From NCBI GenBank assembly GCA_964016885.1, contig OZ024743.1, positions 372,992,001 through 373,056,000 of the forward strand: 64,000 nucleotides of DNA, read 5' to 3'. Source of the stretch: Eledone cirrhosa (lineage: Eukaryota). The number at the start of each line of letters is the position of its first letter. The first letter of the stretch is position 1. Shown in pieces: positions 53,201 to 54,443 of this stretch. The position numbers and the translations under genes were made by a program. Under the pieces are notes generated by a model. The model was given only the letters and a program-made list of their open reading frames with translations, ran no database searches and was not told the origin of the DNA.

Positions 53201-53298
53201 CTGATGCCTTGGGCGTTAAGCAAAAATGTAGAGGCGAGAGTGGATGGTTTTAATTGTTTTGGTGTGTTGTTAATTTGTTTGTTTGTTAATGGCAGCAA
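50278..53298 (-). CDS. LINE ORF2: apurinic-like endonuclease + reverse transcriptase (no AUG at start; frame open from ~53415)
   Basis: [93 protein letters not shown]. Confidence 0.95.
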
Positions 53299-54443
53299 TG
53301 GGAGTTTGTGCAGTGGGGTGATAGTGGAGGGTGGTGCTGGGTGATAGCTCGAATGTTTTTTTCCAGTTCTTTTGCCAGATTCATTATGGCTAAAAAAGAG
53401 GAAGAAGTTTCCTGTTTAGAAGACTGTTGGTGACTGTGGTAGTGGTTATTTTTATGTAGGTTATGGTTTTTGTTTTTGCTTTTATTTTTAATTTTATTTT
53501 CATTTATCCGACGGGTCCCCGGGAGATGGGTAAAGGGACAATCCCGGTCTAAACACAATCTGTCTCGCAGGGAAAAACGGCAGATTTGTGGATTCCTTGT
53601 TTGAGTTATTGGTGGTTGTGTTGGTGTTAAATTAGAGTATGTATTATGGTGGTGGCTGTTTGTGGGGATAGATCGTTTTGTCCTAGGTAAATGGGTGAAT
53701 TTGCAGCCACTATCCGTACATATTCTATAGCGTAGAGAGTAGCGGCAAATGATGGGGTTTCGAGTGGGTGGGTATGTGGGTGTGGGTGTTGTGAGAGGTG
53801 TAGATGATGGTTTGGGTAGGATTTGACGACCTTTGTGGACTGTGGGAGGGAGAGTTCTTGTTCTGGTATTAGAAGGTAAATTCCTTGACATAGCAGTAGA
53901 CAAAAATGTTGTAGTAGTAGTAGTAGTAGTAGGCAGAGATGTTGGCAGTGGTGATGATTGGACTGCTGGGCCAGAGAAAGGATGTGGCGTTTCATGCTGT
54001 GAGACAGAGGCTACTGGGGGGTCAATAGTTTCATTTAGTAGATCGGCCATTGTTGATGAATCAAGGAGTGGTTCACACTGTTGTTGTCGTTGTTGTTGTT
54101 GTTGTTGCTGTTGTTGTTGTTGTAGCTGTTGTTGTTGTTGTTGTTGTTGCTGTTGTAGCTGCTGTTGTTGTTGTTGCTGCTGCTGGACAGCATTCGAAGA
54201 GAAAACACACCGTAGTTTATCCAAATGTTTATTGATTAATTTAAAAGCAATTTCGATTTGCTTTAATTTATTTTGAATCTGTTGTTCAGATCGAGTTTTC
54301 AAAAATTGAACTGTACGTTTAGCAATGTCGTTCAGAGATGAAGCATCTATATTTTCTGTTTGGGAAAGGCAATGCCATGTGTTTATTAGAATGTCGATTT
54401 CATTATCAGACCAGTTCTGTTTGGATTTTTGCTGGTTAGCCAT
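53286..54443 (-). CDS. LINE ORF1: Myb/SANT-like domain, polyQ, Pro/Thr-rich linker, two CCCH zinc fingers
   Basis: ATG-initiated 385 aa. Contains WSDNEIDILINTW...RSEQQIQNKLKQI and two C-x8-C-x4-C-x3-H motifs. Confidence 0.85.
   Translation of the reverse strand: MANQQKSKQNWSDNEIDILINTWHCLSQTENIDASSLNDIAKRTVQFLKTRSEQQIQNKLKQIEIAFKLINKHLDKLRCVFSSNAVQQQQQQQQQLQQQQQQQQQQLQQQQQQQQQQQRQQQCEPLLDSSTMADLLNETIDPPVASVSQHETPHPFSGPAVQSSPLPTSLPTTTTTTTTFLSTAMSRNLPSNTRTRTLPPTVHKGRQILPKPSSTPLTTPTPTYPPTRNPIICRYSLRYRICTDSGCKFTHLPRTKRSIPTNSHHHNTYSNLTPTQPPITQTRNPQICRFSLRDRLCLDRDCPFTHLPGTRRINENKIKNKSKNKNHNLHKNNHYHSHQQSSKQETSSSFLAIMNLAKELEKNIRAITQHHPPLSPHCTNSHCCH

Follow-up and report, generated by a model that had tools for sequence, protein, structure and literature searches.

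The window, a 64,000-nucleotide stretch of Eledone cirrhosa contig OZ024743.1, contains a full-length LINE on the minus strand, flanked on both sides by TA microsatellites. It carries an uninterrupted ORF1 of 385 aa (53286–54443; ATG at 54443, TAA at 53288–53286) and an ORF2 frame of 1045 codons (50278–53415) comprising a linker, an AP endonuclease and a reverse transcriptase (RT). Three Pfam domains scored above the cut-off in ORF2 (PF14529, PF03372, and PF00078), identifying an AP endonuclease and a non-LTR RT; the best match among solved structures is L1 ORF2p (E 7e-22), and among named proteins, the closest to the RT region comes from the octopod Argonauta hians, where it is annotated as hypothetical (63%). 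In the public run X3, 437 records fit the interval 52900–53900, 141 of them at 99% or more. The window element is thus an intact, multi-copy APE-type LINE. Its 5' region (54455–54935) consists of an A/T-rich unit of about 240 bp that is tandemly duplicated, with copies 96% alike, and a TA microsatellite lies further upstream. The short 3' UTR (50191–50277) ends in two copies of a terminal 10-nt unit followed by a TA microsatellite. Long TA/TATAC microsatellites border the LINE at 50191 and 54960, and likewise other fragments nearby, so TA repeats are a possible preferred insertion target; no target-site duplication could be read at the 50191/54960 flanks.

Several other mobile-element remnants and a host exon are present in the window. 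The segment 10593–10871 derives from the 3' end of an element of a related family (73% identical in DNA), and 9631–9975 is a separate C-terminal fragment of an ORF2. Two 5'-truncated LINE fragments of another family, presumably of the RTE type, are located at 46666–48357 (plus strand) and at the coding end of the ORF 43124–45793 (minus strand). In both, ORF2 has a PHD-like finger behind the RT (Pfam PHD, E 2.6e-6), and both abut a TA microsatellite. On the minus strand, 7166–8867 holds two overlapping ORFs of 382 and 200 aa, apparently split by a frame change, which we take to resemble a Penelope-like reverse transcriptase. Next to the LINE, the plus strand has at 58380–58886 an exon that encodes a RING-variant domain (PF12906, E 4e-10); this exon likely belongs to a host gene for a MARCH-type E3 ligase.

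ORF1 of the window element begins with a Myb/SANT-like region (54222–54419; PF13837, E 0.0024, 18.6 bits, below the cut-off of 27) and a polyglutamine tract (54078–54185). These are followed by two CCCH-type fingers recognized by sequence pattern (C-x8-C-x4-C-x3-H), at 53691–53747 and 53526–53582; a G-T-x-R motif behind the second is common to the last finger of relatives. Atlas feature matches of ORF1 to zf-CCCH score 0.79–0.83, that is, below 0.9, and provide a lead only. A segment with the sequence pattern of an amphipathic helix (53343–53396) forms the C-terminal part of ORF1. None of the ORF1 types described for CR1 elements (PHD, RRM, esterase) was found in the window ORF1 with Pfam, and the ORF1 homolog search returned no matches among 8000 candidates.

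The initial annotation had proposed that ORF2 is expressed by a programmed -1 ribosomal frameshift from ORF1. Its reading of the layout proved correct: ORF2 lies in the -1 frame relative to ORF1, opens immediately after a TAA at 53416–53418, 3' of which any shift must occur, and overlaps ORF1 by 130 nt (53286–53415). Read in the -1 frame, this dual-coding stretch yields a linker of low complexity that leads to the endonuclease. The two heptamers TTTTTTA (53397–53391) and AAAAAAC (53361–53355) are also at the positions and in the phase given there, and they are the sole X_XXY_YYZ heptamers phased to the ORF1 frame in the whole of ORF1. ORF2 was further said to lack an AUG until about 108 codons into the endonuclease domain. 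The first AUG does lie inside the endonuclease (codon 148, 52974) and is 108 codons past the TTG at 53298; the domain offset was misjudged, because the endonuclease starts at about 53232, with its conserved Asn at 53217, and the AUG is only about 86 codons past that start. The RT occupies 51663–50932. The predicted fusion product, ORF1-linker-endonuclease-RT, would comprise 1388 aa; no protease domain was detected in the window element with Pfam. Taken alone, the window sequence gives a weak signal. With resampled codons, at least one phased heptamer is expected in an overlap of this length with a chance of 13–27%, two with 1–6%, and an open -1 frame with 2–9%. It is the comparison with relatives that raises the observation above chance.

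Relatives were collected from metagenome contigs by an endonuclease alignment or motif, which is blind to the ORF1/ORF2 junction. This search gave 11 loci among 16 candidate stretches. Two of them were left out as duplicates (L005 of L006, L007 of L008), and the remaining nine together with the window element make ten. Their endonucleases share 36–50% identity with that of the window and 36–79% among themselves. The ten elements are kin and fall into four lineages in the tree, so counts over them are not counts of ten independent events. ORF1 of the relatives L002, L006, and L008–L011 shows the order PHD-like finger(s), repeated CCCH-type fingers and C-terminal helix. A sub-threshold PHD-like finger (Pfam E 0.0007–0.009) was found in three of the four relatives' ORF1s tested; at the place of this finger, the N-terminal half of the window ORF1 has the Myb-like region and polyglutamine. 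The C-terminal helix-like segment, again a sequence pattern, is present in all ten ORF1s and is missing from the predicted fusion.

In every one of the ten elements ORF1 overlaps ORF2 in the -1 frame, by 130–325 nt, and each carries a phased slip site at the equivalent Phe-Leu of ORF1, with which the helix-like segment begins. Where the contig covers that part, the last CCCH-type finger precedes this Phe-Leu. The site is U_UUU_UUA in six elements (L002, L006, L008, L009, L010, and the window, 53391–53397), G_UUU_UUA in two (L003 and L004) and G_GAU_UUU in two (L001 and L011). GUU and GGA are listed as tolerated deviations from XXX (PMC3542737), and G_GAU_UUU is given as the shift site of pea enation mosaic umbravirus (PMC5009743). 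A Leu codon of the non-slipping CTN type occurs in two elements only, L001 and L011, and precisely these two have the GGA-type site, placed one codon upstream. In the tree they are the nearest relatives of the window element (support 87/88, not starred). The conservation that the initial annotation proposed to check was found for a phased slip site and for the -1 overlap in all ten elements, and for UUUUUUA itself in six. The slip site in the LINE junction is a real, conserved feature, and the U_UUU_UUA of the window is likely functional.

Codon choice and the distribution of stops point in the same direction. The Phe-Leu is encoded by TTT TTA in eight of the ten elements, for which their own codon use predicts 0.5–7% per element, and control Phe-Leu pairs in the ORF2 bodies use TTT TTA in 0 of 44 cases. 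Between the site and the ORF1 stop no -1-frame stop was observed, as compared with 23.2 expected when synonymous codons are shuffled and the ORF1 amino acids are kept fixed. In the matched upstream control 55 stops were observed and 58.8 expected, which indicates that the synonymous-shuffle model is calibrated. Even when each lineage is represented by its least favourable member (0.235, 0.120, 0.144, and 0.061), the product is about 2.5e-4. The -1 frame opens 0–39 nt before the site in nine elements and 111 nt before it in L009; in L011 the slip site follows the bounding stop directly, with no base between them.

An AUG before the endonuclease, which the initial annotation regarded as evidence against its proposal, is absent ahead of the conserved Asn in eight elements, including that of the window; L008 and L009 do have such an in-frame AUG. 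At the protein level, 8 of 20 phmmer homologues with an N-terminal extension of at least 50 aa show Phe-Phe followed by an A- or R/S-type residue, as against about 0.7 expected. This Phe-Phe would be the -1 reading of the site and, judged on proteins without their DNA, may extend the pattern to more distant branches. In a second protein set, extensions of at least 40 aa were present in 5 of 120 proteins, with Phe-Phe in none of the five and Val-Phe-Ser in one. Gene callers often place the start 3' of the slip site; of 58 homologues that carry the N-terminal endonuclease motif, 35 were given a start after the conserved Asn region.

The surroundings of the site offer little in the way of RNA structure. 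The GCCA/TGGC hairpin that had been noted behind the first heptamer exists (4 bp, 53374–53390) and is not a credible stimulator: there is no spacer, its stability is not above that of shuffled sequences (z -0.32), and it is not conserved, so it is likely incidental. All 30 downstream folds computed for the ten elements have z of -1.5 or weaker. A simple pseudoknot scan found none in the window, and elsewhere the best candidate was equalled by 4 of 40 shuffles. Thus, among local folds, no stimulatory stem-loop or pseudoknot was detected 5–9 nt downstream, where one is usually, although not universally, expected.

The T6 and A7 runs inside the overlap raise the question of whether the layout is an artefact or a product of decay, a single long ORF having been interrupted by a homopolymer indel in the window copy. 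Four public runs were compared over 52900–53900, two of which (X7 and X8) reach the overlap in scraps only. Among the 12 of 17 indels listed, none falls within 53274–53456, and in run X3 the summed contig depth over the overlap is 8,000–24,000; one contig of depth 5 misses 36 nt inside the overlap. With no indel listed there in the four runs, a homopolymer error, named in the initial annotation as a way to refute it, is contradicted. The layout is identical in all nine relatives, and ORF1 carries its conserved helix-like segment beyond the slip site. A one-frame ORF1-ORF2 form, the other refuting observation named, was not found among the best 120 ORF2/RT relatives, chosen by RT with lengths of 541–1722 aa allowed; the longest has 1147 aa, while a fusion would have about 1390. 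An interrupted single ORF is so improbable on this evidence that it can practically be set aside. Two other predicted proteins deserve mention. P0013 (1282 aa) was considered as an ORF1 fusion and rejected, being a duplicated ORF2, and P0068 combines PHD-type ORF1 sequence and the ORF2 frame in one predicted protein, either through a gene-model join or as a one-frame element. Run X1 contains a diverged variant with six listed substitutions in the overlap, none of which creates a stop in either frame. No change in 53391–53397 is present among the 40 of 88 X1 differences listed. Three X1 contigs are unlike the window just upstream of 53399 and match it from 53399 onward, and one contig joins the endonuclease to a 32-nt island (53368–53399) over an unlike linker; with matching at 80%, these contigs are no proof of an intact heptamer. 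One of the X1 substitutions, at a depth of 292 of 366, breaks A_AAA_AAC and leaves both frames open. This bears on the possibility that the main shift occurs at the second heptamer (53361–53355), which we take to be the slippery site of MMTV gag-pro. Its phase is correct, and few heptamers make mammalian ribosomes shift as readily as A_AAA_AAC (PMC5009743). It is nevertheless found in the window only (1/10 elements), it is broken in the commoner X1 variant, and nothing folds behind it (-3.3 kcal/mol, z -0.5). This detail of the initial annotation fails; a main shift there is highly improbable, and the heptamer is likely incidental and at most auxiliary.

The main rival of frameshifting is termination-reinitiation, as proposed for L1 and shown for SART1, in which translation would end at the ORF1 TAA and resume in the ORF2 frame from a near- or non-cognate codon, producing a separate ORF2p. 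In each of the ten elements the endonuclease Asn indeed follows the ORF1 stop by only 17–77 nt, near-cognate codons occur within 30 nt of the stop in nine (CTG, TTG, CTG, and ATT in the window), and L1 tolerates other sense codons in place of the ORF2 AUG (PMC1965478). A restart at this point leaves unexplained both the phased heptamer 112–292 nt upstream of the stop and the codon choice and absence of -1 stops, and no start position is shared among the ten elements. None of the ten has the signals of SART1- or calicivirus-type reinitiation: neither an AUG overlapping or next to the ORF1 stop (UAAUG type) nor an upstream UGGGA (TURBS) motif was found. Reinitiation as the route to ORF2 is accordingly unlikely. 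Insertion of one U by RNA polymerase II in the T run would fuse the frames in some transcripts, giving the same fusion and placing the same demand on an open -1 frame, and at the window site six T stand in a row. The run is, however, only four T long in two elements and five in two others, while the codon phase and the GGA and GUU substitutes obey tRNA re-pairing rules that a polymerase does not need. Reverse transcription of such transcripts should also have left one-frame elements, yet the runs and the best 120 proteins showed none, so transcriptional slippage is very unlikely. An equally slight probability attaches to splicing, with the site as a 3' splice acceptor that joins an upstream AUG-bearing exon to ORF2. 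A pyrimidine tract followed by TAG in the window accords with it, TAG being present in four elements (window, L008, L009, and L010); the other six have no AG at that place, the fixed codon phase is left without explanation, and no listed joint of DNA contigs ends at 53390, so that no retro-copied spliced form was seen. Splicing and transcriptional slippage thus both fit worse than frameshifting.

The sequence tests support the core of the initial annotation: ORF2 is quite probably expressed by programmed -1 ribosomal frameshifting at U_UUU_UUA (53397–53391), which would yield the predicted ORF1-ORF2 fusion. Most ribosomes starting at 54443 would pass the site without slipping, complete the C-terminal helix and tail, and terminate at 53286, giving ORF1p. 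A minority would slip back one base on the Phe-Leu and continue in the ORF2 frame through the linker, endonuclease and RT; a high ratio of ORF1p to fusion would be set by this minority. The fusion would keep the CCCH fingers of ORF1 and lose its C-terminal helix. Since no 3' stem-loop or pseudoknot is detectable, the efficiency may, more tentatively, be low, as would be appropriate for an enzyme required in small quantity. The stimulus might come from a pause at the UUA codon, which is rarely used in the ten elements, or from some non-structural or protein stimulator. At the HIV-1 site, slippage is promoted when UUA is decoded slowly (PMC6547452), which serves here as an analogy only. For what may be a widespread lineage of animal LINEs with a CCCH-type ORF1, we lean slightly towards a general scheme in which there is no free ORF2p: endonuclease and RT would be made only as a frameshift fusion without the C-terminal helix, from a structure-free Phe-Leu site, and the enzymes would be tethered to the RNA via the ORF1 fingers.

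The occurrence of the layout outside the ten elements was explored in more distant LINEs. Searched with the endonuclease alignment, genome contigs yielded no relative. Viral contigs yielded none with either of two endonuclease alignments, and the RT alignment led there to five distant RTs, none of which was used. Among 48 further loci (L012–L059) an endonuclease match was found in 20; four of these start at a contig edge, and the match of L021 belongs to another ORF. The remaining 15 are mostly distant lineages (RT 33–43% where measured) with mixed layouts, including +1 overlaps, an in-frame adjacent stop and an own AUG, which indicates that the -1 layout is not general to LINEs and belongs to the lineage of the window element. 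Three loci have features resembling those of the ten elements. L018, with a CCCH-type ORF1 (RT 43%), has a -1 overlap of 217 nt, A_AAA_AAC near 1360 and an AUG at codon 40; L022 has a -1 overlap with A_AAA_AAC near 1069 and no AUG before the endonuclease; and L025 has a -1 overlap with U_UUU_UUA near 480. As leads only, these suggest that -1 shifting may be wider than the lineage of the window. In L030 (near 355) and L033 (near 1232) the ORF1 stop is a TGA with C as the next base, and ORF2 continues directly in the same frame. This junction could possibly be a case of stop-codon readthrough, although there is an AUG at codon 38. The 43 loci L017–L059 were found in bacterial and archaeal assemblies through matches to ORF2; many are entire small eukaryotic LINE contigs, which probably represent host contamination of those assemblies.

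Several known systems share parts of this arrangement. C-terminal motifs that we take to be CR1-like, together with the sub-threshold PHD matches of the relatives, make membership in the CR1 clade likely. The relatives' PHD-like finger resembles that of CR1-group LINEs with a PHD-type ORF1 (type III of Khazina and Weichenrieder), and a short 3' UTR with a brief tandem unit at its end is likewise shared with the CR1 group, whereas the window ORF1 has a Myb-like start and polyglutamine in place of the PHD. An ORF1 composed of PHD-like finger, CCCH fingers and C-terminal helix is not among the types set out in the accessible text of the ORF1 classification paper, where CCCH fingers have no occurrence (PMC4120745). 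Like the window element, SART1 and mammalian L1 have a bicistronic LINE RNA with ORF1 above an APE-RT ORF2. They differ in the junction: in SART1 (R1 clade) stop and start overlap as UAAUG, and in L1 a 63-nt spacer precedes an unconventional reinitiation (PMC5972666); the window element has neither. The contrast drawn by the initial annotation with these two LINEs, both of which use reinitiation, was right as far as it went; a -1 shift had, however, already been asserted for other LINEs. The Dictyostelium elements TRE5-A and TRE3-A (L1 clade) are also APE-type, and a -1 frameshift is said to be required for their ORF2 (PMC5911963, citing element descriptions of 1992 and 1998). They belong to a different host kingdom, and the consulted portion of that source names no slip site for them (PMC5911963). 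A frameshift has also been asserted for HeT-A gag; Paramecium LINEs are credited with either a +1 shift or reinitiation (PMC5405496). The octopus LINE paper, as far as its available text goes, deals with a single-ORF RTE element (PMC9115989), and translation of LINE ORF2 from a bicistronic RNA has been called unclear (PMC3708506). The cases worked out so far use reinitiation. In the full-text literature searched (subscription journals, Repbase Reports and supplements lay outside this scope) there was no description of a -1 heptamer conserved in CR1-group or CCCH-ORF1 LINEs, and by term counts neither "frameshift" nor "overlap" occurs in the indexed text of a 2026 CR1-group survey (PMC13343379).

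Outside the LINEs, the closest counterpart is HIV-1 gag-pol, where a U_UUU_UUA heptamer encodes Phe-Leu in a dual-coding overlap (PMC6547452, PMC5009743). As in HIV-1, a structural or RNA-binding ORF precedes an enzyme ORF in the -1 frame, the same heptamer lies at Phe-Leu, and the first ORF runs past the site. HIV-1 differs in its defined stem-loop and protease processing; the window element is a non-LTR retrotransposon with neither 3' structure nor protease domain. The 6K/TF site of Semliki Forest virus is also U_UUU_UUA. For this -1 shift mutagenesis found no functional 3' secondary structure (PMC5009743), which offers a precedent, by analogy, for a candidate -1 site without one; the shift is viral, however, and leads to a short transframe product and not to an enzyme fusion. 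If true, a slip site working without 3' structure would be a useful recoding model, and a fused ORF1-ORF2 protein would alter the view of ribonucleoprotein assembly and the annotation of such ORF2s. With a phased site, compensating variants and seven named bases, a gag-pol-type route becomes directly testable in an animal LINE lineage. Overall, given the TRE elements, a -1 shift in LINEs is not new as a category; the conserved heptamer in an animal lineage is a new variant of it.
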